From an uncultured Mycoplasmatota bacterium (lineage in GTDB: Bacteria > Bacillota_I > Bacilli_A > RF39 > UBA660), in NCBI GenBank assembly GCA_948467605.1, contig CAOKET010000002.1:14410-78409 (forward strand): a DNA stretch of 64,000 bases. The letters run 5' to 3'. Below, in pieces: positions 2,169-22,616 of the stretch. The notes under the pieces are model-generated. The model worked only from the letters and a program-made list of their open reading frames with translations. It made no database searches and had not been told where the DNA came from. Position 1 is the first letter of the stretch. Each line of letters opens with the position of its first letter. The position numbers and the translations under genes are program-made.

Positions 2169-4235
2169 TTATCTATCCTTAATAATATTTTTACTGCAAA
2201 TATATGTAATTAGAAAATATCCACCATATATAATAACGATTACACTAGCAGTCATGATAATTGATGGTAATAATTGATTTGTACCAAAAGAGGATAATAT
2301 ATAATTGCAAAATTTAATTCCAAAAACGGAATGAATAATTGCAATTAATAATGGGAACATAAAGAATATAGCAATTTGATTAAATAACGCTTTATTCAAC
2401 GATTTTTCATCTGTTCCTATTTTTCTTAGTACTATAAATCTTTCTTTATTGTCTGTACTTTCTGACAATTCCTTTAACGCTAGTATTGCAGCACTACTAA
2501 TTAGGAAAATTATACCTAAATAAATACCAATAAATGTTACCATTGCACCAAGTCCTACACTTGATTCATATATGTGTAACTTTGTTGCTGTTTGTAAGTT
2601 AGTCATACTAGCATATGGATGACTTTCAATACTTCGAACTATGTTTTCTATATTTTCTTTTTCCTTCTCTATTTTTACATTATAATTTCCAATTATTACA
2701 CTTTGTATACGAATTGACTCATCAACAGCATTATCTGGTACTATGAATATTCCAGTATTCATATGATTACTAGACATATGATAAAATCCATTTATAACTT
2801 TATCGTACTTTGGGCTATAAGTTTTGCCTAGTAATGTAATAGGAGTATTTAATTTTAGAGATTCATTTCTCATTATATTTGTCTGTTCATAGTCAGCTAT
2901 TATGATATATTCATCGTCATTCAATGATAATTCATCTAAGTTAAATAATCTTGCTATCTTGTTATAATCACTTAATTTTATAAACTCTTCTTTCGCATTA
3001 AAGTCTGCAAGTGGATAGAGTCTATGTGCCTCATCATAATATGAACCTAGTGTGTCTTTAATTAAAATGTCATCAGTGGAATATGTATTAAATTCTATTA
3101 TATCTTTTAAATATTTATCTATATCATAATCTAATTTTTCTAGGGTTTCTCTTGCTGATATTTTGGAGTCTTCAATCATATTTATATTATATCTCCAATT
3201 AGAATTTGCAATTTCTTCGGTCAAATCTAATGTTTTATAAAATTCAACATCAGCAGGTGCAAGTGTTTTTAAATTATGTGTCATAGAATTTTTGATAGAT
3301 AATGCACTAGATAATACACATATTGTTACAAAAAGCATTAAACATATAATTGTCATTGATACAACTGTTGTATTTATCTTGCTACTTAATTGTCTTAAGG
3401 TAAAACTGTTTAGTCCCCTATAATAAAGTTTTTTCATACTCATTACTATTTTTAGTATTAAGCCTGATAAAGACCAAAATATAAGAAATGTCGATACTGC
3501 ACCCATTATTATTGGTTTAAATATCTCAACTGCATTTGCTAGAGAGTTAATTCCATTAGTAACTAGGTAATAGGCGTACCCTAAGATACATGATGATATT
3601 ATAAATATTATTATACAAATAATAGGATTTTTTAGTTTTATTTTTTCAGATTTTTTACTTCCATGAATCAAGTCTATAAGTTTACATCTACTAACATTAA
3701 TCGTATTAAATATCATTACGAATAAATACATAATACCAAAATAAATTAATGTTTTAATAAATGAACTATTAGAGAATATAAATGTGAATTTAGTTAAATC
3801 TGCTTCAAACATATTTGCAACAAGTATACTCATAAACTGTGATAGTATAATACCAATCGCAAGTCCAACTACAAGTGATATAATTCCTATAAAAAGTGTT
3901 TCAACAAATAAAATCATAGATATTTTTCTTTTACTCATACCTAAAGTTAAATATATTCCAAATTCTTTTTTCCTTCTTTTTATTAAAAATCTACTTGCAT
4001 ATATTATTAAGAAACCAAGTATAAATGCAATAAAAACACTTACACCTGATAATAAATTAGTCATTAATTTTATAATGTCTCTTGTATTTGAACTTACATT
4101 CATCATAACAGTTTGACTATCAAGAGCATTAAATATATAAAATATTGCAACTCCAAGAATAAGTGTAAAAAAGTAGATGGCGTAATCTTTAAAACTTTTT
4201 CTTATGTTTTTTAATGATAATTTAAATAACATCAC
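2169..4235 (-). CDS. BceB-type ABC transporter permease (FtsX-like, 10 TM with a large extracellular domain)
   Basis: 688 aa. The pattern of TM helices and a roughly 200-aa soluble loop between TM7 and TM8 is typical of BceB/VraG. Its start overlaps the end of the ATPase gene by 14 nt. Confidence 0.8.
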   Translation of the reverse strand: MMLFKLSLKNIRKSFKDYAIYFFTLILGVAIFYIFNALDSQTVMMNVSSNTRDIIKLMTNLLSGVSVFIAFILGFLIIYASRFLIKRRKKEFGIYLTLGMSKRKISMILFVETLFIGIISLVVGLAIGIILSQFMSILVANMFEADLTKFTFIFSNSSFIKTLIYFGIMYLFVMIFNTINVSRCKLIDLIHGSKKSEKIKLKNPIICIIIFIISSCILGYAYYLVTNGINSLANAVEIFKPIIMGAVSTFLIFWSLSGLILKIVMSMKKLYYRGLNSFTLRQLSSKINTTVVSMTIICLMLFVTICVLSSALSIKNSMTHNLKTLAPADVEFYKTLDLTEEIANSNWRYNINMIEDSKISARETLEKLDYDIDKYLKDIIEFNTYSTDDILIKDTLGSYYDEAHRLYPLADFNAKEEFIKLSDYNKIARLFNLDELSLNDDEYIIIADYEQTNIMRNESLKLNTPITLLGKTYSPKYDKVINGFYHMSSNHMNTGIFIVPDNAVDESIRIQSVIIGNYNVKIEKEKENIENIVRSIESHPYASMTNLQTATKLHIYESSVGLGAMVTFIGIYLGIIFLISSAAILALKELSESTDNKERFIVLRKIGTDEKSLNKALFNQIAIFFMFPLLIAIIHSVFGIKFCNYILSSFGTNQLLPSIIMTASVIVIIYGGYFLITYICSKNIIKDR

Positions 4236-12438: not shown

Positions 12439-12936
12439 CATGCAAAACTTTGTATTAAAATTATACCATAAAAAAGCAAAATCTAAATTGATTATACTCT
12501 TATTCCTCGAAAAATTTATCTATTCTAGCATCTATTATTATAGAAATCTTGTATAAGGTCATAAGTGATATATTATTTCTATCATTAGATATCTAATACA
12601 TTTTAGATGATTGACTGATACACCTAATTTTTCATCAACCTTACGCCTTTTTCATTCCTATATTTTTTGACGTTTAAATCTAAAAACACTTAAAAATGTT
12701 AAATAGAGGCATATTTTAAAAATATAAATTACCACATAGAGTATTAAAAAAGTGATAGGTATTTCGGACTATCTTCAGGGGACTGCAATATTGTAATAAA
12801 TTGCTTAAAAAGTGTAATAATTTGGCTAATTTTTGATAAGAGATCTCAACTAAAGAGAACAAAATTAAATAAAAGTATCTAATTTGTATGTAAATTGTAT
12901 CTGCCCTCTTCAGGTATATTCGGTTAAATAAGCTTA

Positions 12937-12960
12937 AACAAAAAAACATATTTCTATGTT
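12937..12960 (-). terminator. Rho-independent terminator after the R-M operon
   Basis: Hairpin AACATA-tttc-TATGTT, followed on the minus strand by a 7-U run (A-run at 12938-12944 on the plus strand). It sits 5 nt past the stop at 12965. Confidence 0.6.
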
Positions 12961-12964
12961 CAAA

Positions 12965-14158
12965 TTATAAATTATTAAAATAATCGATTATTTCCTTCTT
13001 TGAGACATCAAGTGTTATATGAACAGATATAGTGGGATTTAACTGATTTACATCTTTTCTTTTAAAAATTACATAATCATTTTCTAATATTGCTTTTTCA
13101 TATTTAACATAAAAAAATTTGTTAAATTTTACTCTTCCAGGTTCTGATGATCCACTACTATTTTTGATTTCTATATTTGGATTCATTTTTACTTTAATCA
13201 TTTCGTCTGGTAAGTATTCTGCATCAAATTCTTTCATTATCTTATTAAATAACCCATCAAGAACTAATTGTTTTCCATTTCTACCTGTCGTTCTAATTTC
13301 GCTACCACGAGTCGATACTATTCTACTTCCATCGTTTAAGTGAGCATTTAAAATATCTGGCTCCAATGCAATCAATTCATTTTCTTTTGTTGCACTTACA
13401 TAAATATCAATGTTTTTTCTAGAAAAATAACATAAAGCAGCATCAATCAATTCTTGTTCATCAAATTTATCTCTATAATTATGACCTATTTCGGAAATCA
13501 AATTTGTTTCATTATTAAATTGTTCGACAAACTTAATTAATTCTGGAGTCTTTTCTTCAAAATTATCTGTTAAAATCAATTTACCATGTTCATCATAATA
13601 TAAATCAGATTCTCCCGCTTTTGCTTCCCTCTTTTTAAATTCTAATTTGATTTTATTGTTATTAATTATTATTTCAGCATCACCTTCGGCAGGATTACCA
13701 TACTGAAAAATAAAAATATTGGGATTTCGAGTACTATAAAACAAATATCTAGCAGCAGAATATGTTTGTTGCCCAGAGTTTAAAAAGTTTCTACATTCAA
13801 CAGGAAGAGAGTTTAAAGGCGATCTATCAAAATCGATACACTTATTTAGCTTAAATATTTTAGCTAATGTTTCAATATAATTACATTCAGATAATATTGA
13901 TCTTTGTAATGATTTTCCGCTATTATATTGTTTTTCTAATTCATAATTTCCGCTTCTTATCTTTTCTATGCAACCAATTATTTCATAATTTTTTTGTAAA
14001 TATTCTTCATATTCTTCATCTATTTTATGATTTTCTTTATAAAATTTTTCAATCCTTTTAATTTCTTCATCTGTTAATACCAAATTAGAATCATTTGAAT
14101 ATATTGTATCAAGAAAAAAAGATATTGCTTCTTCTCTATTCATCATTATCATCCTCAC
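12965..14158 (-). CDS. Putative type II restriction endonuclease (cognate of the upstream methyltransferase)
   Basis: 397 aa with no recognisable family motif. The call rests on context: a 23-nt overlap with the 3' end of the MTase gene, same strand, and a terminator directly after it. Confidence 0.4.
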   Translation of the reverse strand: MRMIMMNREEAISFFLDTIYSNDSNLVLTDEEIKRIEKFYKENHKIDEEYEEYLQKNYEIIGCIEKIRSGNYELEKQYNSGKSLQRSILSECNYIETLAKIFKLNKCIDFDRSPLNSLPVECRNFLNSGQQTYSAARYLFYSTRNPNIFIFQYGNPAEGDAEIIINNNKIKLEFKKREAKAGESDLYYDEHGKLILTDNFEEKTPELIKFVEQFNNETNLISEIGHNYRDKFDEQELIDAALCYFSRKNIDIYVSATKENELIALEPDILNAHLNDGSRIVSTRGSEIRTTGRNGKQLVLDGLFNKIMKEFDAEYLPDEMIKVKMNPNIEIKNSSGSSEPGRVKFNKFFYVKYEKAILENDYVIFKRKDVNQLNPTISVHITLDVSKKEIIDYFNNL

Positions 14159-15698
14159 TTTCTACAAATAAAGAACTACTATGGACTCTATTGAAAATAT
14201 TAACATCGCTTTTTATTCCAAGGGCTTCTAAAAAAATTTTATTTATATTATTTCTATATTCAATTGGAAATTTGATGTTTTCTTGTTTTTTTCCAGCATT
14301 CATTTTATATGTTAAATATTTAGTCTCATTATTTTGCATTTCTTCTGCTATTTTATTAATTTCTTTTTTTTGTTCATTTGTTAACTTGTTAAAAAATATT
14401 GGTATACTATTAATAATTGTTAAGGGGCAATTTATTCCACCATCATATAATCTCCAATACCAATATGCAAATGTAGAATTTAGCATACAATATACATAAT
14501 TGTATTTTTCTTTATCTTCTACATGAACTACTCGTTTACCATCTCTATTTAATTCTCTCTTAGAACCTACTGTGAAATATCTACATGTTGTAGGAACAAA
14601 TATTTCATATCCATCTTTTGTACCAATTATATTTCCCATTTTTTGATCTGAGACATTTTCCCATTGATCTAAAACATTAATTAATTCATTGTGGCATTTA
14701 TAGTATGCTTTCTTTTTTGAATCGATTAATTGATATCTATCATTAATAATACTTTCTAGATATTTCTTTTTTAACATTTTAGCTCTTTCATCAGTTTTAA
14801 ATCTTATTAGTGGACTAAATCTAAAACCATTAACTCCGTCTTTATTTTCAACAACTGTTATTGCTGATCTTACAGAATTTCCTTTATTACTATTAAAAAT
14901 TCCATGCTTTCTTCCATTGAATATGTTACCTGGTACATTATCAAATGACACTACAAAACCATTGTAATTATTCATTACTTGTCTTAAACTGTAAAACTTA
15001 CCACTACCTATAAAACTATATGGAGTAATTATAACTGATTTATTGCTTTGCTTAATTATCTTTTCTATAAAACTTGAGTATAACTCTTTAGAATCAATAA
15101 CTACTTTTGTTACATCCCAATCTTCACCAATATTTAATATTTTATAATAAGGTGGATTTGAAATTACTTTAGAGTTTTTAGGTAATTTAACTTTTTTACT
15201 TAAAAAATCACAATGTTTCGCATTTATCTTGTTTAATAATTCTTTACCATATTTAATTGCAATAGTATACTTACAAATTCCAAGTGCTATTTCATCCACA
15301 TCATATAAATATAAATTACCATTAGAAATTAAATTGTAAGCCTTTTCTTTACCTATTAATTCTAAATATGCCAAGATTAAATTTCCAGCACCACAACCAA
15401 CATCGCAAACATTTTCTGCATCTAAAGGTTCTAACCACTCAGACATCAATAATGCTACATCTTTTGGAGTATAGTATTTTCCCATTTCTTTTTTATTAAT
15501 TTTATTTTCATGTTCTAATCCTATTTCATATAATTCTCCATAATTATCTATTTCAAACAGATCAGACTCAAATTCTTTTTCTAATGTCTTAGATAGTATT
15601 GAATGCCATGTTTTTTTTAGTCCTTTTTTATCGATATCATTTATATAATCTTCAATTAAATACTTTGCCATATCAATACCATCCTTTCCTATAAACAT
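14136..15698 (-). CDS. N6-adenine DNA methyltransferase, gamma class (Eco57I/TaqI-like N6_Mtase)
   Basis: GKYYTPKDVA (motif X-like), DVGCGAGNL (motif I, SAM-binding), ISNPPYYK (motif IV, NPPY). 520 aa. Confidence 0.85.
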   Translation of the reverse strand: MFIGKDGIDMAKYLIEDYINDIDKKGLKKTWHSILSKTLEKEFESDLFEIDNYGELYEIGLEHENKINKKEMGKYYTPKDVALLMSEWLEPLDAENVCDVGCGAGNLILAYLELIGKEKAYNLISNGNLYLYDVDEIALGICKYTIAIKYGKELLNKINAKHCDFLSKKVKLPKNSKVISNPPYYKILNIGEDWDVTKVVIDSKELYSSFIEKIIKQSNKSVIITPYSFIGSGKFYSLRQVMNNYNGFVVSFDNVPGNIFNGRKHGIFNSNKGNSVRSAITVVENKDGVNGFRFSPLIRFKTDERAKMLKKKYLESIINDRYQLIDSKKKAYYKCHNELINVLDQWENVSDQKMGNIIGTKDGYEIFVPTTCRYFTVGSKRELNRDGKRVVHVEDKEKYNYVYCMLNSTFAYWYWRLYDGGINCPLTIINSIPIFFNKLTNEQKKEINKIAEEMQNNETKYLTYKMNAGKKQENIKFPIEYRNNINKIFLEALGIKSDVNIFNRVHSSSLFVESEDDNDE

Positions 15699-15746
15699 TA
15701 TACCATAAATATTGGTAATAACATTAAAAAGGCAGGAATTTTCCCG

Positions 15747-16577
15747 CTAAATTAATTTAATATGTATATTATTATCTTTATCTAAATTCCATGTACATTT
15801 AGTAGGATTATACAATCCCTCATTTGTTTTTAAATTGTACTTTTTATATAATCTGCTCATTTCTTTTGAAAAATATTTTCTATCTTTACTTATTGGAACA
15901 TTTTTTAATATTTCTCCATTGAAAGTTAAATCAAAAAAATCTTTATCGCAAGAAAATTTTTCAAGTACTATTCTTGGGATTCTCAAAATTGTTGCTCTTA
16001 TATCATTCACAGAAATTTCTTTATCAACGCTTAATATAATTTCATCATTATTTGTGCGCACTATATCAATACTACTGTTTTTTTCCTTATAAAATGACTT
16101 CAATTCATTTAAGCTAAATTTTGGTTCATATACAAATCCGATATTTTTTTCAATACATAAATCTATTAATTCTTCACCATCTATTAATATAAGCTTGTAT
16201 CCTAATTTACTCTTGGCGGCTAATTCTGCTTCTTTTGTAAATCTTCCAGTTGTAATAATAATTCCAACCTCATCAGAATTAATAATGCCTAAGTGCCTTT
16301 GAATAATTTCAATTCCAATTGGAGAACCAGGTTTATATCTTTTTGCTTGAATTTTATAAATAACACTGTCTACATCATCATTTATTAAACTAGGTCTTAT
16401 AGCTTCTAAATCTATTCCTCCATCGCCTGAGGCTTTAGTTACAACAACTTCACTTAATCCTAATTTTTCAAGAAATGGTTTTAAAAATTTTTCAAACTCA
16501 TAGCCATTTTCAAACGATTTGTAAAATTGATCTAACACATGCTTTTTTTCTTCGTTATTAAGAGATACAATTGCCAT
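15747..16577 (-). CDS. Mrr-catalytic-domain restriction endonuclease with an extra C-terminal domain
   Basis: ASGDGGIDLEAI ... YKIQAKRY ... GIIITTGRFTKEA matches the Mrr_cat PD-(D/E)xK fold (D...QxK). The C-terminal ~130 aa are unassigned. Confidence 0.7.
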   Translation of the reverse strand: MAIVSLNNEEKKHVLDQFYKSFENGYEFEKFLKPFLEKLGLSEVVVTKASGDGGIDLEAIRPSLINDDVDSVIYKIQAKRYKPGSPIGIEIIQRHLGIINSDEVGIIITTGRFTKEAELAAKSKLGYKLILIDGEELIDLCIEKNIGFVYEPKFSLNELKSFYKEKNSSIDIVRTNNDEIILSVDKEISVNDIRATILRIPRIVLEKFSCDKDFFDLTFNGEILKNVPISKDRKYFSKEMSRLYKKYNLKTNEGLYNPTKCTWNLDKDNNIHIKLI

Positions 16578-16946
16578 AAAATCACCTCATCAATCAATAA
16601 ATATTATAACACAAAATAACAGTTTTACCGTAATATCTTGCTAATTTATTGCAATTAGTTACATTCATAGCTTAATTTGTATGTATTATTAAGTTTATTG
16701 TAATTTCAAAAAGTGCCTTAAAGCCTTATTTTACGGGCTTTTAAGCAAAAAAATACCCCGATCTCTCAGGTCTTCAGTGGGCTTTTATTTAATTTTAAAA
16801 CTTTTATTTTTCTTTATATTTCGTTTAATTTTCACCAATTTTGATTAAAATAAATTAAAGTATAAATATAAAAGTTTAAAATTTTGCTACCTAAATGCTA
16901 CCTGAAAATTTAAAAAATATTCTTTCATAGAAATTGTAATTTGTAA

Positions 16947-17612
16947 TTAAAATTCATTTTCCAAAATATGATTTAGAAACTCCACAATATAAATTTCCCT
17001 ACCTTTAAATAAAACTCTGTTAACATTCTGATTATTTATAAGTAAAGTACCTTTTAGCATATCATATTCTACACAACAATAATTATCTATCTTAAGTAAT
17101 TTATCTTTTAGTTTTATTTCAGGTATATTATAAATCATTGCAAGTTCACTTCCTATGTTCCTTTCTTTTGCTCTAAATAAATGTCCACAATATAAACATA
17201 AGTGAGTTCTATGTGGTGTATAGGCAAATTGCCCATTATCAGAGTGGTAGCGACCACAATGACTGCATTTTACTATTTCTAATGGTATATTATTTAGTTT
17301 AGCTAGCATTATTCCTCCAAAATCTTTATAAGTTAATAAAGAATTATCATATTCTAAAACTCCACTAAATTCATTATTATTTATTATTATTTTAGGTATA
17401 ACACTTTCTAAAACGTTTTCATATCTAATATTTATATCTTTGATTTCATTTTGCTTAATATTTAATCTATTATCGTATATTTCTTTATTACTCCAAAGAC
17501 ATTCATCAAGTTTGTTTCCCAATTTATCATAAGCAAAAGATTTATGAACAGTACAATAATATTTAGTTGTTCCTTGTCTTGATTTTCCAATATATTCTAT
17601 ATTACATTTCAT
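16947..17612 (-). CDS. Hypothetical protein with a CxxC-x19-CxxC zinc-ribbon
   Basis: 221 aa. CSHCGRYH...HRTHLCLYCGH zinc-ribbon-like pattern. No family recognised. Lies inside the defense-island block. Confidence 0.45.
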   Translation of the reverse strand: MKCNIEYIGKSRQGTTKYYCTVHKSFAYDKLGNKLDECLWSNKEIYDNRLNIKQNEIKDINIRYENVLESVIPKIIINNNEFSGVLEYDNSLLTYKDFGGIMLAKLNNIPLEIVKCSHCGRYHSDNGQFAYTPHRTHLCLYCGHLFRAKERNIGSELAMIYNIPEIKLKDKLLKIDNYCCVEYDMLKGTLLINNQNVNRVLFKGREIYIVEFLNHILENEF

Positions 17613-17646
17613 AGTTTCATCCCCTCCAAATTAGATTGAAATTTTT

Positions 17647-18270
17647 TTATTTAATCGTTTCTATTTTATTACTTTTAAGTATATTTAATTTTTCTGGATC
17701 ATTTAGTAATGATAAACTATCGACTAACTTAACACCATTGATTTCTTTTGGAATAGGATACTCTTTTAAACTTAAAAATTCTTGTTGATATACCTTTTGA
17801 TTTAACAACTTGTCTATATTATTTACTTCATTTGCTATATAACTTTCTAAATAATAAAGAGTATAAACATTTTGTGACTTTGAATATTTAAGTTCATAAT
17901 GTGAAGCCAATCTTTTACTAATTGTTGTCTCATTAACCCCAAAGGTTTCATTAAATTCTTCTATAAGAACCTGTTTTCTTTTCTCCTCATTAAATCCTTT
18001 TTCTATTTCATATTTTGTAGTATAAATATCATTGTATAGATCAATAAGTTCTTTATATGTAATATCTTTATTTTCAATATTGAAATCATTCATTGTAAAT
18101 TTATTGTGCTGTTGAAAAAATGGATATAGCACATTCCAAGTAGTAGGCTTTATATTATATAACACTAATCCCTTATCAGTATATGTATATAAGTCTGTTG
18201 CACTATCTAACCTAGTTGGAAACATTTCTTTAGGTACTTTTTGATTAAGTATGTCTTTAGTTATAATCAT
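17647..18270 (-). CDS. Hypothetical protein (207 aa), immediately upstream of and co-directional with the zinc-ribbon protein
   Basis: The ORF is roughly 34 nt from the downstream gene. No motifs recognised. Confidence 0.4.
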   Translation of the reverse strand: MIITKDILNQKVPKEMFPTRLDSATDLYTYTDKGLVLYNIKPTTWNVLYPFFQQHNKFTMNDFNIENKDITYKELIDLYNDIYTTKYEIEKGFNEEKRKQVLIEEFNETFGVNETTISKRLASHYELKYSKSQNVYTLYYLESYIANEVNNIDKLLNQKVYQQEFLSLKEYPIPKEINGVKLVDSLSLLNDPEKLNILKSNKIETIK

Positions 18271-18391
18271 TACTTCACTCTCCTATATTATTCTTATTTC
18301 ATAATCTAATACTTTGCAACCTTCATTTAATTTAAATTTTCCTTCAAATATTTTGTCTTTAAATAAATATGATATAAACTTTTCATTTTGA

Positions 18392-18628
18392 TCAAATTGA
18401 TTTATTTTTGACAAATACTCCATCTAATGAAACTTCTAATAGCTCTCCTTCAAAATTTTCTGCTGTAAATATTGTTCCCTCGGCAGAATCTTTCCAATAA
18501 GACATTACTTGTAATCTAGGGTTAATTAAGTGTAAGCCTGTTTCTTCATAAAACTCTCTTGTTATACAATCCAACGGAGTTTCCACTTGTTCAAACTTAC
18601 CACCTGAAGGGGCATATACTTGCCGCAT
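18392..18628 (-). pseudogene. NUDIX hydrolase remnant (Nudix box retained, N-terminal beta strands missing)
   Basis: GGKFEQVETPLDCITREFYEETGL is the Nudix box GX5EX7REUXEEXGU. The ORF is only 78 aa, with an in-frame stop 4 codons upstream of the ATG. An extended -10 TGATATAAT lies about 15 nt upstream. Confidence 0.45.
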
Positions 18629-18770
18629 TTCTTTTATTAGTTATATTATATCATTTTATGAGCGTTATTTATACAATTTTAGGTAGCATTTTTATTAAAC
18701 TTTTTTAACCAAAATTAACACTTTTTAAAGTTTTCTATATAAATTTTTATCATTTTTAGTTCATAATAAC

Positions 18771-18866
18771 AAAAAATGGAGCCTTTCGGCTCCTTCAGGG
18801 GGTTTTGGTTGATGCACTCTCACATTTTATACCGTAAGAGCACAGGCGCAATATTGCTATCACGCT
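18771..18866 (-). ncRNA. Candidate ~95-nt structured small RNA or cis-leader, ending in a canonical intrinsic terminator
   Basis: Sits between a good sigma-A promoter and the GGAGCCGAAAGGCUCC+U6 terminator (18778-18793, A-run 18771-18776). The body is locally GC-rich. It contains the GCAAUAUUGC palindrome and a GCUCUUAC/GUGAGAGU pairing. No known RNA family recognised. Confidence 0.35.
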
Positions 18867-18872
18867 AACATA

Positions 18873-18901
18873 ATCATATTATTAAATCGATTAAAAGTCA
18901 A
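18873..18901 (-). promoter_or_regulatory. Sigma-A-type promoter (-35 TTGACT, 17-nt spacer, -10 TATGAT) driving the candidate sRNA
   Basis: Minus-strand reading TTGACTtttaatcgatttaataaTATGAT. Plus-strand coordinates: -35 at 18896-18901, -10 at 18873-18878. Confidence 0.45.
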
Positions 18902-18921
18902 TGAATTTTGGTGAATTATTT

Positions 18922-19776
18922 TTAATTTAATTTTTTTAGTTTGATTTTTCCAGTATATACGGCATCTGCGGTACCCGTTAGGTATACATTGTTTGTACAG
19001 TCAAAGTCCCAGTAAACTTTTAAAACTCCATTCTTCATATAAACGTCTACTCCCCTATTTGTCTTATTTGTTATAGCAGATGCTACTCCTGAGGCACATG
19101 CACCAGTTCCACATGCTAATGTTTCTCCACTGCCCCTTTCCCATACTCTCATTCTTATTCTATTTCTATCAATTATTTCTACAAATTCTACATTTGTTCT
19201 ATTTTTAAACATTTCATGATTTTCTATACTAGGTCCTAATTCGTTTATATTGACTTTATCGACATCTCCAACAAATATTACGGCATGAGGATTACCCATT
19301 GATAATATTGTTACATCTAGAGTTTTTCCATTAACTATTATTGGTTTATTAATGTAATCATTTATATTTTCATCAATTCCAACAGCACTTCCTCTAAAAT
19401 TTGGTTGACCCATGTTTACCCTCACTGTTTCTATTTCTCTTGTTGTATTATTTATATTTAAAAATATATCCTTTATTCCGCTTAATGTATCTATTTTTAA
19501 TTTTGGACCTTTTATTTTTCTTTCTTCATATAGGTAAAGTGCAACACATCTTATTGCATTACCACACATCTCTGCTTCTGAACCATCTGCATTATATATT
19601 CGCATAAAGCAGTCGGCTTTATCGCTTTTTTCCATGATTACTACACCATCAGATCCTACCCCTGTATTTCTGTTACACAACTTGCTTATATAGGGTATTA
19701 TATCTAATTTACCATCATCTAAGTTGTCTATAAATATATAGTCATTTCCTAGACCATGCATTTTTTGAAACTCCAT
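18922..19776 (-). CDS. dapF: Diaminopimelate epimerase
   Basis: HGLGNDYIF, the CGNAIRC active-site Cys, and a second catalytic Cys in GSGETLACGTGACA. 284 aa. Confidence 0.95.
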   Translation of the reverse strand: MEFQKMHGLGNDYIFIDNLDDGKLDIIPYISKLCNRNTGVGSDGVVIMEKSDKADCFMRIYNADGSEAEMCGNAIRCVALYLYEERKIKGPKLKIDTLSGIKDIFLNINNTTREIETVRVNMGQPNFRGSAVGIDENINDYINKPIIVNGKTLDVTILSMGNPHAVIFVGDVDKVNINELGPSIENHEMFKNRTNVEFVEIIDRNRIRMRVWERGSGETLACGTGACASGVASAITNKTNRGVDVYMKNGVLKVYWDFDCTNNVYLTGTADAVYTGKIKLKKLN

Positions 19777-19819
19777 ATTATCACCTATAATAAAGTATGC
19801 AAAAATACATTTATGGCAA

Positions 19820-21793
19820 CTAGTCTTGGTTATTTATCTTATTTATTTCTTCATTTATATTTTTATAATCATATATATTTTTTGTTTCAATAAATTTACT
19901 AGCATCTTCTTTAGTCTGCATAAGAATTTTGTAATCATTTTTAAGTGATGCGATTTTAAAAATCATATCTCCATGTTGTTTTACACCAAACAAATCACCA
20001 TGACCCCTTAGTTTAAAATCGTTTTCACTTATTTCAAATCCATCATTTGTTTTTGTCATTACTTTTAGTCTTTCATGTTCACTGTTACTTATTAAAATAC
20101 AAATTCCTTCCTTTTGTCCTCTTCCTACTCTACCTCTTAACTGATGAAGGGTTGATAGTCCAAATCTAGATGCATCAAATATAACCATAGTTGTAGCATT
20201 TGGTATATCTATTCCTACTTCTATAACTGTTGTGCTTATAAGAATATTTATTTCATTTTCTTTGAATAGGTTCATTATATTTTCTTTGTCTTTATTTTTC
20301 ATTTTTCCATGTATTATATCTATATTATAACTTTTAAATGCTTTTTGTAGTTTTTCTTTTAAATCCATTACACTTTCCATATTGCTAGAGTCACTTTCTT
20401 CTATTAGTGGTGCGACTACAAATATTTGATTATTCTGTTTCAGTTGTTCATACATTATAGATAGTACATCTTTAATCTCATCATATTTTTTTAAATATGT
20501 TATTACCTCTTTTCTACCTTTAGGAAGTGTTTTTATACTAGTTATATCCATATCTTTATATATCGTTAATGCATATGTTCTTGGGATTGGTGTTGCACTC
20601 ATATATAATACATCTGGTTTTTGACCTTTATTTCTTAATATATGTCTTTGATTAACTCCAAATCTATGTTGTTCATCTGTTATTACTAGTCCTAAATTAT
20701 TAAATTCTATTTGTTCATTTAATAGTGCATGCGTTCCAATTATTAAATCTATTTCATTATTTATAAGTTTATTATATATTTCTTCTTTTTTAGATTTTGT
20801 GATTGTCCCTGTTAGAAGTTCGACTCTTAGTGGTAATATTTTTTTTATATTATTGTAGTGTTGATTAGCAAGTATTTCTGTTGGAACCATTAGTGCACTC
20901 TGATAATTTGCTTTAGCCATTAGATAACATGCGGCAAATGCTACTATTGTCTTACCGCTTCCAACATCACCTTGTATAAGTCTATTCATTCTCTTAGGAC
21001 TATTTAGATCTAAAATTATATCGTCAATTGCCTTTATTTGGTCTTCTGTTAATTCAAATGGTATTAAACTTATAAAATCATCTTTCCATTTCTCATTTAT
21101 ATCTCGTATAAAATATTCATTTTCTTCCTTATTTTGTTCTCTTAATTTCTCCATTTTTAACATAAATATAAATAATTCTTCATATTTTAATCTTATTAAT
21201 GCCTTTTTTAGATTTGATTCGTCTTTTGGATTATGTATTTCTATTAGACTTTCATCTTTATCTATAAATGAGTAGTTATCTTTTAAATAACTTGGTATAT
21301 AGTCCTCTACTTCCACACTTTTTAGTGCTTGATTCACATAGTTATTTATCATCTTACTACTTATACCAGTTGTGCAATGATATATACTCTCTATTTGGTT
21401 ATCTAAATTTATATCCAACTTTATATCACTTGCAGTTATTGTATTTCTTTTTTGGTCATATTTTCCTAGTATTATTATTTGATTATTTATTGTCAAATGG
21501 GGTTTTAAAAATGCCCTATTAAATATTACAACATTTATGAGTTTTCCGTCTATTTCTACTTTAAATCTCAAACTATTCATTTTTCTTTTTATGTATGATA
21601 TAGTCGGTGTACTAATTACTACTCCCTTTACTACAATTTTATTAAAGTCGCTATGTTCCATTAAAGATTTAGTTTCAATTTTATTATATCTATACGGATA
21701 ATAGTTTATTAAATCATTAATATTAAATATACCTAGTTTATTTAGTAGTTTTATATTCTTTGGTCCTAAACCTTTTATTTCTTGTAATTCCAT
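19820..21793 (-). CDS. recG: ATP-dependent DNA helicase RecG
   Basis: N-terminal wedge/OB region. Helicase motifs: I GDVGSGKT, II DEQHRFG, VI QLRGRVGRG. About 657 aa from the MELQEIK start. Confidence 0.95.
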   Translation of the reverse strand: MELQEIKGLGPKNIKLLNKLGIFNINDLINYYPYRYNKIETKSLMEHSDFNKIVVKGVVISTPTISYIKRKMNSLRFKVEIDGKLINVVIFNRAFLKPHLTINNQIIILGKYDQKRNTITASDIKLDINLDNQIESIYHCTTGISSKMINNYVNQALKSVEVEDYIPSYLKDNYSFIDKDESLIEIHNPKDESNLKKALIRLKYEELFIFMLKMEKLREQNKEENEYFIRDINEKWKDDFISLIPFELTEDQIKAIDDIILDLNSPKRMNRLIQGDVGSGKTIVAFAACYLMAKANYQSALMVPTEILANQHYNNIKKILPLRVELLTGTITKSKKEEIYNKLINNEIDLIIGTHALLNEQIEFNNLGLVITDEQHRFGVNQRHILRNKGQKPDVLYMSATPIPRTYALTIYKDMDITSIKTLPKGRKEVITYLKKYDEIKDVLSIMYEQLKQNNQIFVVAPLIEESDSSNMESVMDLKEKLQKAFKSYNIDIIHGKMKNKDKENIMNLFKENEINILISTTVIEVGIDIPNATTMVIFDASRFGLSTLHQLRGRVGRGQKEGICILISNSEHERLKVMTKTNDGFEISENDFKLRGHGDLFGVKQHGDMIFKIASLKNDYKILMQTKEDASKFIETKNIYDYKNINEEINKINNQD

Positions 21794-21884
21794 AATTACC
21801 ACCTATATATATTCTAACATATATTTGGTGATAAAAATTTTTAAAATCTGTTATATTTTAATCAATATATACTATAAATAAAAT

Positions 21885-22373
21885 TTATTCTGTTAATGTT
21901 CTTACTGTTTGCTTGTAATATGTTTTTATTTTTACTTTTCTATTACCAATAGCATTTTTATATATTTGTCTTAAGCAATTTGATAGTTCTATTATATTTG
22001 GTAATGGTTTATTTTGATAAATTCCATCAATTAATATTTGTCTTTCAATAATTTGACATTCTATCTTTTCTAATTCGTATATTTTATCATTTACTTCAAT
22101 AATTGGCTTTTTAAACATTTCGATACATGCGTCTACTGCAATTTCACAGTTTATTTTCCTATCATTAGTAATGTTATTTTTTATCATAGACATTAATAGG
22201 CATGCTGCTTCATCAAAACTATCTATTTTTCTTGACATGTTTTCTTCTACAAAATTATATAGTTCTTTATAAATTTTTAAAATACTTAAACACTCATTTT
22301 TATTTGATGTTTTTACTCCACTTTTTTTAATTGATGATTGTATACATTTTATTACTTTTATTAGGCTTTTCAT
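21885..22373 (-). CDS. Hypothetical protein (162 aa)
   Basis: ORF only. No recognised motif. Confidence 0.35.
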   Translation of the reverse strand: MKSLIKVIKCIQSSIKKSGVKTSNKNECLSILKIYKELYNFVEENMSRKIDSFDEAACLLMSMIKNNITNDRKINCEIAVDACIEMFKKPIIEVNDKIYELEKIECQIIERQILIDGIYQNKPLPNIIELSNCLRQIYKNAIGNRKVKIKTYYKQTVRTLTE

Positions 22374-22480: not shown

Positions 22481-22509
22481 TTGACAAATTCATATTGTTG
22501 AGTTAGTAT
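22481..22509 (+). promoter_or_regulatory. Putative sigma-A promoter (-35 TTGACA, 17-nt spacer, -10 TAGTAT)
   Basis: TTGACA at 22481-22486 and TAGTAT at 22504-22509. Lies between two minus-strand genes with no plus-strand CDS downstream. Confidence 0.35.
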
Positions 22510-22516
22510 ATACATC

Positions 22517-22616
22517 ACCAATTCGGTTTAGGCGAATTGGTGCTAGTATCACACTAGCCAACCCCTTTTTATTCTTTTTTGAGGTTGTTTCAGGGGGAGC
22601 AACCTCTTTTTTATAT
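22517..22616 (+). ncRNA. Candidate ~100-nt small RNA with three hairpins and a terminal intrinsic terminator
   Basis: Hairpins: CACCAATTCG-gtttagg-CGAATTGGTG; GCTAGT-atcaca-ACTAGC followed by a U-run; GAGGTTG-tttcagggggagc-AACCTC followed by TTTTTT. A CCCC (22562) / GGGG (22593) alternative pairing is possible. Confidence 0.35.

Follow-up and report, generated by a model that had tools for sequence, protein, structure and literature searches.

C-rich small RNAs (sRNAs) such as RoxS/RsaE, FsrA and CsfG of Bacillus and Staphylococcus pair with G-rich ribosome-binding sites, and in Firmicutes the G-rich sRNAs RosA and RsaI bind C-rich sRNAs (PMC8216469). Another kind of system is found in genomic islands, for which the Islander description reports that the target gene is restored by island sequence and that a displaced fragment of it marks the far end (PMC4383910). 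Here we analysed a 64,000-nucleotide (nt) stretch of DNA, referred to as the window, from an uncultured Mycoplasmatota bacterium (assembly GCA_948467605.1, contig CAOKET010000002.1, positions 14,410 to 78,409), and we use the name sRNA-1 for a small RNA gene on its minus strand, at a segment that had been flagged in a preliminary description. With RoxS/RsaE, FsrA and CsfG, sRNA-1 shares a Bacilli host and the layout of a stand-alone gene of ~100 nt: transcription would run from a sigma-A-type promoter to an intrinsic terminator, and the RNA has stem-loops and a C-run that is exposed and highly conserved. Like the tRNA and transfer-messenger RNA (tmRNA) sites treated in that description (PMC4383910), it is a locus with integrases at its 3' part, a regenerated 3' end, displaced fragments and many unrelated cargos. 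We give a probability of about 0.6 to the full explanation, in which sRNA-1 is an sRNA gene whose 3' end serves as a bacterial attachment site (attB) and whose product would act in trans through its C-rich segment.

Downstream of dapF, whose stop codon is at 18924..18922, the minus strand has 20 nt, then the -35 hexamer TTGACT (18896..18901), a 17-nt spacer and the -10 hexamer TATGAT (18873..18878). This near-consensus promoter, a strong one of the sigma-70 type, had been noticed in the preliminary description; it has 10 of 12 matches and is the best promoter-like site within the 2.5 kb of 17500..20000, but the distance from the dapF stop codon to the -35 hexamer is 20 nt and not the 25 nt given there. 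Promoter-like hexamer pairs alone were not beyond chance (15 found versus 17.7 expected). Since such a pair is not unusual in A+T-rich DNA, the case for sRNA-1 being beyond chance rests on conservation. The predicted transcript of ~96 nt (18771..18866, minus strand), which was delimited by sequence, fold and the covariance model R1 described below, would begin at A18866, 7 nt after the -10 hexamer, and end in the U-tract.

Two hairpins, both supported by fold and covariation, come first: hairpin 1 (GCGUGAUA-GCAA-UAUUGCGC; 18846..18865, minus strand) and the 12-bp hairpin 2, with the core CUCUUACG...GUGAGAG (18813..18844, minus strand). They are followed by the C-rich segment UCAACCAAAACCCCCUGA (18795..18812, minus strand), which is unpaired in the minimum free energy and centroid folds and is proposed to be a seed or binding platform; the unpaired stretch up to the terminator, ~20 nt in length, reads UCAACCAAAACCCCCUGAAG (18812..18793). 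The intrinsic terminator GGAGCCGAAAGGCUCC, then A and U6 (18771..18793, minus strand), is the only terminator-like site in 17500..20000. Its hairpin GGAGCCGAAAGGCTCC (18793..18778), followed by A and by T6 at 18776..18771, has six pairs, five of them G-C, and a GAAA loop, and with the U6 tract it agrees with the definition of an intrinsic (Rho-independent) terminator. When folded, a 98-nt RNA gave both hairpins, 19 nt of unpaired sequence and then the hairpin of the terminator, with an energy of -36.1 kcal/mol (z = -5.8; none of 200 shuffles folded as well). The G+C content was 0.42 at 18750..18849 as compared with ~0.17-0.30 in the adjacent non-coding sequence, and no minus-strand open reading frame (ORF) of at least 30 amino acids (aa) lies inside sRNA-1, the only ORF there being one of 30 aa on the plus strand. 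The GC-rich and hairpin-rich segment of ~95 nt, the terminator with its U6 and the lack of a fitting ORF, all of which the preliminary description had pointed out, were borne out by these results.

To assess conservation of the structure, 102 distinct RNA bodies were aligned with MAFFT, the structure not being used, and helices were called with RNAalifold. Two helices with 13 pairs were obtained, and every pair showed double changes with pairing kept, so that the check for covariation in homologous regions that had been suggested for this segment came out positive for all 13 modelled pairs. In hairpin 1, seven of seven modelled pairs had compensatory changes and 94.5% of the cells were paired; in hairpin 2, the figures were six of six and 90%, with one conserved U.G pair, a position that was U.G in 69 sequences. 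The UUACG at the top of hairpin 2 was nearly invariant. Overall, 92.4% of the cells were paired versus 30-55% when the partners were slid. The covariation score was 0.529, compared with 0.260 +/- 0.010 in shuffled alignments (0 of 500 reached the observed value) and at most 0.16 in slid ones, and cells with a double change numbered 192 versus 47 in the shuffles. G-U and U-G combinations outnumbered A-C and C-A combinations by 153 to 22 in this alignment, an excess indicating that the modelled strand is the transcribed strand. The covariance model R1, built from the 102 homologues, matched the window copy with 78.4 bits (E = 3.6e-19; 18793..18883), as expected by construction because the window copy is among the 102. 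Collectively, sRNA-1 is almost certainly a real and conserved sRNA gene, as judged from these sequence comparisons. On inspection by eye, two further pairings were dropped. No complementarity was seen to be conserved that would let the hairpin-2 loop form a pseudoknot with the single strand, and the UUUUGUUG tail, with which CAACCAAAA could pair on the flanks of the terminator, lies beyond the likely 3' end.

More than 190 contigs from public genomes and metagenomes contain the sRNA-1 unit; they belong to uncultured gut 'Bacilli/Tenericutes/Erysipelotrichaceae' assembled from metagenomes, bacteria with small genomes. A genome collection with one genome per species was scanned with the exact 19-nt core, loci being taken as 8-kb blocks whose limits are not contig ends. 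At least 120 matching stretches were found, and 118 of the matches listed were true copies, each with promoter, two hairpins, core and terminator. Two core matches, L111 and L129 (loci are numbered with an L throughout), lie by chance in coding sequence and are not sRNA-1 copies. The source guts of these genomes were human, rabbit, ruminant and mouse, and closed genomes of 1.2 and 1.5 Mb were included. Almost all records are labelled as uncultured Bacilli, Tenericutes, Mycoplasma or Erysipelotrichaceae metagenome-assembled genomes. Muribaculaceae, Gammaproteobacteria and the like are given for a few; because their flanks are of the same Bacilli type, these names probably reflect mislabelling or mis-binning.

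A second scan was run on metagenome contigs with an anchor made only of the hairpin-2 consensus and CAACC, the core not being required. All 74 true homologues recovered continue after CAACC with AAAACCCCCTGA, and the part of the segment that follows CAACC, AAAACCCCCUGA, was invariant in 74 of 74. The two bases after AAAACCCCCTGA were AG in 59, AA in 11, AT in two and GA in two, and they vary together with the attached terminator. Variation thus starts exactly at the junction, and the 17-nt single strand CAACCAAAACCCCCUGA is invariant. Since the second scan did not require the core, this invariance is no artefact of the search. Among 150 distinct homologues, a promoter of the form TTGAYN-(16-18)-TANNNT was present in 144, with a 17-nt spacer in 139 of those 144; TTGACA or TTGACT stood at the place equivalent to the -35 hexamer in 134, and a hairpin plus T-run terminator was present in 144.

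The nearest upstream gene was compared at 115 loci. A RecG-like helicase of ~660 aa was found in 59, the call being based on length and on N-terminal similarity to the window ORF 19820..21802, whose L001 counterpart carries the RecG_wedge and RecG_dom3_C domains. The other upstream genes encode a membrane protein of ~200 aa (14 loci), DapF (nine loci, the clade of the window), a YebC-like protein recognised by eye (four loci) and assorted others. In the clade of the window the order is recG-dapF-RNA, and elsewhere the usual place of sRNA-1 is just downstream of recG. Given that a RecG-like gene is the upstream gene in 59 of 115 loci and DapF in the clade of the window alone, the ancestral order is, on this comparison, taken to be recG followed by sRNA-1, the two having been separated in the window's clade by the insertion of dapF. 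The comparison of loci shows sRNA-1 to be a conserved structured RNA gene that does not depend on its neighbours.

The preliminary description could assign no known RNA family to the segment, and Rfam 15 at gathering thresholds likewise gave no match in the whole 64-kb window. At E <= 10, the sRNA-1 locus gave only a terminator-driven match to ES205 (14.8 bits versus 86 needed), and at E <= 1 nothing was obtained for sRNA-1, or for the second RNA (sRNA-2) described below, in 19 other sRNA-1 loci. RsaE/RoxS (RF01820) in particular did not match sRNA-1 at E <= 10 in the window or at E <= 1 in the 19 loci. ARAGORN found no tRNA or tmRNA in the window, and neither did Rfam. In the searchable full-text literature, the core sequence strings hit only unrelated primers, and no description fitting sRNA-1 came up. 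No record was identical to the window DapF protein. The sRNA-1 family, absent from Rfam and not found in published sequence, is a new sRNA family.

Relatives of the window DapF form a small clade at 73-88% identity from human gut metagenomes, the next relatives having at most 52%. In eight contigs of this clade the promoter and an RNA body near-identical to that of the window stand right after dapF, and homology stops abruptly after ...CCCCCUGAAG / ...CCCCCTGAAG, beyond which each genome has a different terminator and cargo. The junction CCCCCTGAAG (18793..18802, minus strand), where homology between genomes ends, is the putative core of the attachment (att) site. Four terminator hairpins follow the junction in the eight contigs and a fifth in the window, with different genes after each. 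The cargo comprises an integrase and a Mob_Pre relaxase in L006, PcfJ, PcfK and an integrase in L007, Fic in L002-5 and a helix-turn-helix (HTH) protein in L001, and L008 has the same terminator as L006 with the start of a homologous integrase at the contig end. L001, L002-5 and L006 have an identical DapF protein and an identical RNA body, yet three different terminators and cargos. Among 113 loci, 60 different 16-mers follow the core. Identical terminator-plus-flank modules stand behind 4-14 different RNA bodies, such as GAGCGCAATAGCGCTCC...GAAACCCTTTATTTATAAGGGTTTG behind six, and the GGAGCCGAAAGGCUCC-type terminator, the commonest of the 60 variants, was found in 14 loci with 14 different RNA bodies. 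This mixing of modules and bodies implies that the RNA body stays with the host and that the 3' module moves horizontally.

Integrases were searched for in 128 loci with a profile built from three of them. Twenty-six integrase-like ORFs were found in 25 loci, all on the 3' side of sRNA-1 and none upstream; 25 of them are convergent with sRNA-1, and 16 start 104-592 nt past the core. All four integrases examined with Pfam contain Phage_integrase (PF00589), three also Arm-DNA-bind_4 (PF14657) and two an N-terminal SAM-like domain. Arm-type repeats lie past the terminators (TTTAGTCGA twice, CAGATACCAA three times and TTAGATACT three times). On the viral contig L009 a prophage integrase abuts a divergent sRNA-1 copy, the sole informative junction obtained from two scans of viral contigs. 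When the 3' 60 nt were compared with phage genomes by BLAST, Klebsiella phages and enterobacterial phages matched just in the GGAGCCGAAAGGCTCC-T6 terminator, a generic one, and these matches are uninformative on the phage attachment site (attP).

A displaced (C)CCCCTGAAG with a terminator was found 0.9-6 kb downstream on the same strand in nine loci, the window included. The left edge of the direct repeats at the left and right ends of the inserts (attL and attR) is always at (C)CCCCTGAAG, within the junction CCCCCTGAAG, and the attR copies share just ~8-11 nt with sRNA-1. Because the mobile elements share so little, the invariance of the upstream UCAACCAAAA must reflect a function of the RNA itself. 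In the mechanism that we propose, elements with a tyrosine integrase would recombine within ...CCCCCTGAAG at the 3' end of sRNA-1 and would bring a terminator hairpin of their own, so that the RNA stays complete, and the old CCCCTGAAG plus terminator fragment would be pushed to the far end of the insert. From these comparisons, the 3' end of sRNA-1 is very probably an attB hot spot with terminator replacement.

With respect to the features by which Islander recognises islands, an integrase adjoins the 3' part of the target in 16 loci, the window not being one of them. The 3' end is restored, each insert giving a new hairpin and U-run directly after CCCCCUGAAG, and a displaced 3' fragment lies at the far end in the nine loci mentioned, at 12781..12746 in the window. 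Although it works like a tRNA-gene (tDNA) target, sRNA-1 is not a gene for a tRNA or a tmRNA. Unlike tRNA and tmRNA sites, it is only the last few bases and a Rho-independent terminator that are regenerated here, and, the sequence of that terminator not being constrained, every element family shows a visibly different 3' end of its own.

Two observations concern the inserts at other loci. The same element ends were seen in different species (L060, L107, L059 and L068; L006, L008 and L121), recurring ends being TTGGAATAATAAGGCATAGGGGCTATTTATATATGTATTAGGTACCCA and TTCCCTCGAAAGAGGGAAC...AAGGGTTTCTGAGG, the latter with three CAGATACCAA repeats. The integrases next to these ends, of ~371-372 aa, are seemingly closely similar and suggest a family specialised for this att site. 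Short inserts with no integrase were found in L041, L092 and L104 (at +1.2, +2.2 and +4.6 kb from the sRNA-1 core, respectively); their repeats span the whole terminator and, in L041 and L092, also the flank beyond. These inserts could be small cassettes or products of tandem accretion at the att site.

In the window, an inserted island of ~6 kb (12782..18792, minus strand), delimited by Pfam content and bounding repeats, lies between attL and an attR remnant. Its genes are a NUDIX fragment, two of unknown function, an Mrr-type restriction endonuclease (Mrr_cat, 15747..16577, minus strand; Pfam), an N6 DNA methylase (N6_Mtase, 14136..15698, minus strand; Pfam) and an unknown gene of 397 aa. 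The cargo at 12965..18270 (minus strand) includes three proteins with no Pfam match, of 207, 221 and 397 aa. It is likely a restriction-modification or defence cassette delivered to the sRNA site. The attR remnant (12746..12781, minus strand), recognised as the bounding repeat, consists of CCCCTGAAG and the decayed terminator ATAGTCCGAAATACCTATCAC-T6. This second CCCCTGAAG is at 12781..12773, the chance expectation of the 9-mer in the window being ~0.03 as estimated from base composition, and ATAGTCCGAAATACCTATCAC-T6 is a decayed form of the intact ATAGGCCGAAAGGCCTATCAC-T5 that follows sRNA-1 in L021. The R1 match there was weak (12773..12803, 14.9 bits, E = 0.26). Nearby, a decayed partial sRNA-1-like copy of another lineage type (12908..12979, minus strand; R1 15.3 bits, E = 0.19) contains the hairpin ACAUAGAAAUAUGU, then ...UAACCGAAUAUACCUGAAG, then CAGATAC/TTAGATAC arm-like repeats, and its best local alignment scored 57 versus a null of 39 +/- 4 with a maximum of 50. 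We tentatively regard it as the relic of an earlier element stacked beside the attR remnant.

Cis-mobilizable elements (CIMEs) of streptococci are integrase-less islands flanked by att sites that arise from accretion or decay of integrative elements. The island of the window and several 1-5-kb inserts elsewhere resemble them in having att-type repeats and no integrase, mobility and accretion being drawn here by analogy, and the stacked remnants at 12746..12979 are a further likeness. By the same analogy, the island of the window is read as an insert at the sRNA-1 attB whose integrase would have been lost. GGAGCCGAAAGGCUCC was seen in other loci both directly behind the RNA and as a displaced copy, and the present terminator of the window may be either native or element-borne.

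As for function, the exposed C-rich segment of sRNA-1 would act in trans by pairing with G-rich sequences, and the hairpins and the terminator would provide stability. Possible targets are GGGGG-type ribosome-binding sites, as for RoxS/RsaE/FsrA, and UCAGGGGG at the top of the sRNA-2 terminator hairpin. With a promoter and a terminator each in 144 of the 150 homologues, sRNA-1 has the stand-alone character of the C-rich sRNA class. Its C-run is exposed in the predicted fold, lies outside both covarying helices and is invariant in 74 of 74 homologues. Unlike RoxS/RsaE, sRNA-1 has no sequence or covariance-model similarity to that family and occupies a different genomic position, downstream of recG. 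RsaE/RoxS are also characterised by at least two CCCCUUUGUUU motifs, and sRNA-1 has one C5 run in CAACCAAAACCCCCUGA and sRNA-2 one CCAACCCCUUUUU. By analogy with the known class, there is about an even chance that sRNA-1 is a C-rich base-pairing regulator. GGGGGA motifs were also noted 5-8 nt before the ATG of three window genes (34990, 38378 and 49195, minus strand). By Pfam, a GmrSD_N domain is present in one of the three, and no functional theme emerged for the set; a C-rich sRNA could mask Shine-Dalgarno sites of this G5 type.

A second conserved sRNA, sRNA-2, was recognised by fold and conservation upstream of and divergent from recG (22515..22612, plus strand). Its promoter is TTGACA-17-TAGTAT (22481..22486 and 22504..22509, plus strand), and it folds (z = -4.6) into two hairpins, a single strand CCAACCCCUUUUUAUUCUUUU with the C-rich CCAACCCCUUUUU, and a terminator hairpin. 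sRNA-2 was found in 36 loci; in L001-L008 and 27 others it lies ~2.2-5.4 kb upstream of sRNA-1. A core of ~60 nt (ACCAAUUC...GCGAAUUGGUGCUAGUAUCACACUAGCCAACCCCUUUUUAUUCUUU) is nearly invariant, and the terminator stems covary. The top of the terminator hairpin, UCAGGGGG (22590..22597), is present in 24 of 30 distinct copies with 21 different stem flanks. It is the exact 8-nt complement of the invariant CCCCCUGA of sRNA-1, and its UCA part fits sRNA-1 and not the CCCCUUU of sRNA-2 itself. In cofolding, the heterodimer of the two RNAs was 6.7 kcal/mol better than two monomers. The energy of the full-length duplex was no better than that with shuffled sRNA-2; because this measure ignores intramolecular structure, it was not used as support. 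The similarity of sRNA-2 to RsaE was weak and non-significant (17.5 bits, E = 1.9, threshold 79 bits). Like RosA of B. subtilis and RsaI of S. aureus, sRNA-2 has a conserved G-run, UCAGGGGG, that complements the C-run of another sRNA, and RsaI likewise combines a G-rich with a C-rich region (PMC8216469). Unlike in those sRNAs, the G-run of sRNA-2 tops a terminator hairpin and forms no long single strand, the interaction is a predicted one, and the two RNAs are linked and flank recG; no homology with RosA or RsaI was detected. On these models, sRNA-2 is a candidate partner of sRNA-1.

Several points weigh against the full explanation. The sRNA-1 transcript, its ends and its abundance are predicted. 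A k-mer scan of 1.5 Mb of flanks revealed no recurrent mRNA site complementary to the seed, and the three GGGGGA ribosome-binding sites of the window pair weakly beyond the G-run. Six-frame translations of the whole window contained no match to the integrase profile, the repeat that bounds the island is only 9 nt long, and a comparison of the island and post-island proteins with all loci gave no empty-site relative. With no integrase and so short a repeat, it is by analogy with the other loci that site-specific integration is proposed as the origin of the window island. In the predicted folds, the sRNA-2 G-run is partly engaged in pairs of its own hairpin, the 8-nt partner site leaves the rest of the 17-nt invariant stretch unexplained, and covariation cannot test the pairing of the two RNAs because both motifs are invariant.

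The preliminary description had offered two identities for the segment: an sRNA, or an orphaned riboswitch or attenuator leader whose downstream gene, left as a NUDIX remnant, has decayed. The layout of promoter, structure and terminator is indeed leader-like, and the NUDIX fragment lies ~140 nt downstream of sRNA-1. However, what follows sRNA-1 is mobile DNA, often with a convergent integrase, and varies between almost all genomes. None of the other loci has a counterpart of the NUDIX fragment, no riboswitch or leader of Rfam was found in the window or in the 19 other loci, and the would-be expression platform, the terminator, is exchanged freely behind a constant body. Since the NUDIX fragment sits inside the 6-kb island bounded by att-type repeats, it is cargo or debris of that island and no decayed regulated gene. 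The sRNA half of the earlier proposal therefore stands, on the strength of the own promoter and terminator, the covariation and the varied upstream genes; the leader half is extremely improbable. It is also very improbable that there is no separate gene and that the segment belongs to the 3' untranslated region (UTR) of dapF or recG, or that it serves only at the DNA level, as a recombination site or as the end of a mobile element. The position 20 nt after dapF on the same strand and the demonstrable use as a recombination site agree with such an origin, and a dapF 3' UTR with no independent 5' end and no conservation was one of the refuting cases that the preliminary description had named. 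That case is contradicted by a promoter of its own at fixed spacing in 144 of 150 copies and by varied upstream genes, which together argue that sRNA-1 is not a dapF 3' UTR element. The excess of G-U over A-C and the compensatory changes further indicate selection on the RNA of this strand. The mobile elements share just the ~8-11 nt with sRNA-1, and the RNA body is constant where DapF is identical, with terminators and flanks common to different bodies, which argues against a site acting at the DNA level alone.

Two other explanations accept the gene and differ in what the RNA does. A protein-binding or sponge RNA, in which the 17-nt single strand, perhaps together with the semi-conserved hairpin-2 loop, is bound by a conserved protein, for instance a single-strand RNA binder of the KH-domain or S1 type, is a serious rival, albeit in our view an unlikely one. 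Seventeen invariant nucleotides are long for a seed, the flanks hold no recurrent complementary mRNA site, and the nearly invariant UUACG at the top of hairpin 2 would also be accounted for. On the other hand, the gene neighbourhood (RecG-like, DapF and others) links no candidate protein to sRNA-1, and sRNA-2 conserves an exact complement of the C-run. Multi-target sRNAs, moreover, are known to keep long invariant seed regions. The complement in sRNA-2 leads to the other possibility, in which sRNA-1 is mainly an antagonist or partner of sRNA-2, the two forming a regulator-decoy pair around recG whose CCCCCUGA-UCAGGGGG pairing alters the stability, termination or activity of one of the two. The persistence of the 8-nt complement in 24 of 30 copies despite 21 stem flanks, the UCA part that matches sRNA-1 only, the cofolding gain and the precedents of RosA/RoxS and RsaI/RsaG (PMC8216469) speak for this pair. 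The duplex energy no better than with shuffled sRNA-2 and the partly paired G-run speak against it, as do the six of 30 distinct copies with no full UCAGGGGG, two of which (L019 and L084) have no G-run at all; the sRNA-1 core is unchanged in those loci. The pairing also accounts for only eight of the 17 invariant nucleotides. We therefore hold a role confined mainly to sRNA-2 to be doubtful, and prefer the reading of sRNA-1 as a C-rich regulator with an attB at its 3' end.

A large branch of gut Bacilli that is uncultured and poorly annotated gains a covariation-supported and widespread sRNA family, and sRNA-2 is likewise uncatalogued. That the terminator is replaced and the RNA retained gives evolutionary evidence, of an independent kind, that the RNA is needed. 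Where prophages and islands are to be delimited in these metagenome-assembled genomes, a major integration hot spot that is neither a tRNA nor a tmRNA gene has to be reckoned with; tools keyed to tDNA would be expected to miss the sRNA-1 site, and its use accounts for the gene content that varies after recG and dapF. The invariant 17-nt seed and its sRNA-2 complement provide testable hypotheses of riboregulation in organisms not yet grown. A wider proposal would have recG flanked by a linked sRNA-1/sRNA-2 circuit, made up of a C-rich regulator and a G-run decoy, with the sRNA-1 seed as the pan-lineage attB of dedicated arm-binding tyrosine integrases in an order-level group. Elements of that integrase family would then have to carry a functional terminator to keep sRNA-1 alive. 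Were this true, sRNA-1 would be a 'universal docking gene', neither tRNA nor tmRNA, that shapes horizontal transfer in these genomes; at its full extent the proposal is speculative and probably goes too far.

Some minor features were observed in the vicinity of these genes. Between sRNA-2 and recG, the window has an ORF of 162 aa with no Pfam match (21885..22373, minus strand), and its counterpart in the DapF clade is a 151-aa gene at the same place in L001-L006. In L016, a T-box leader (3344..3480, minus strand; 58 bits), cut by the contig end, is ordinary and unrelated to sRNA-1; it adjoins a 939-aa ORF upstream of sRNA-1 that looks like an aminoacyl-tRNA synthetase.

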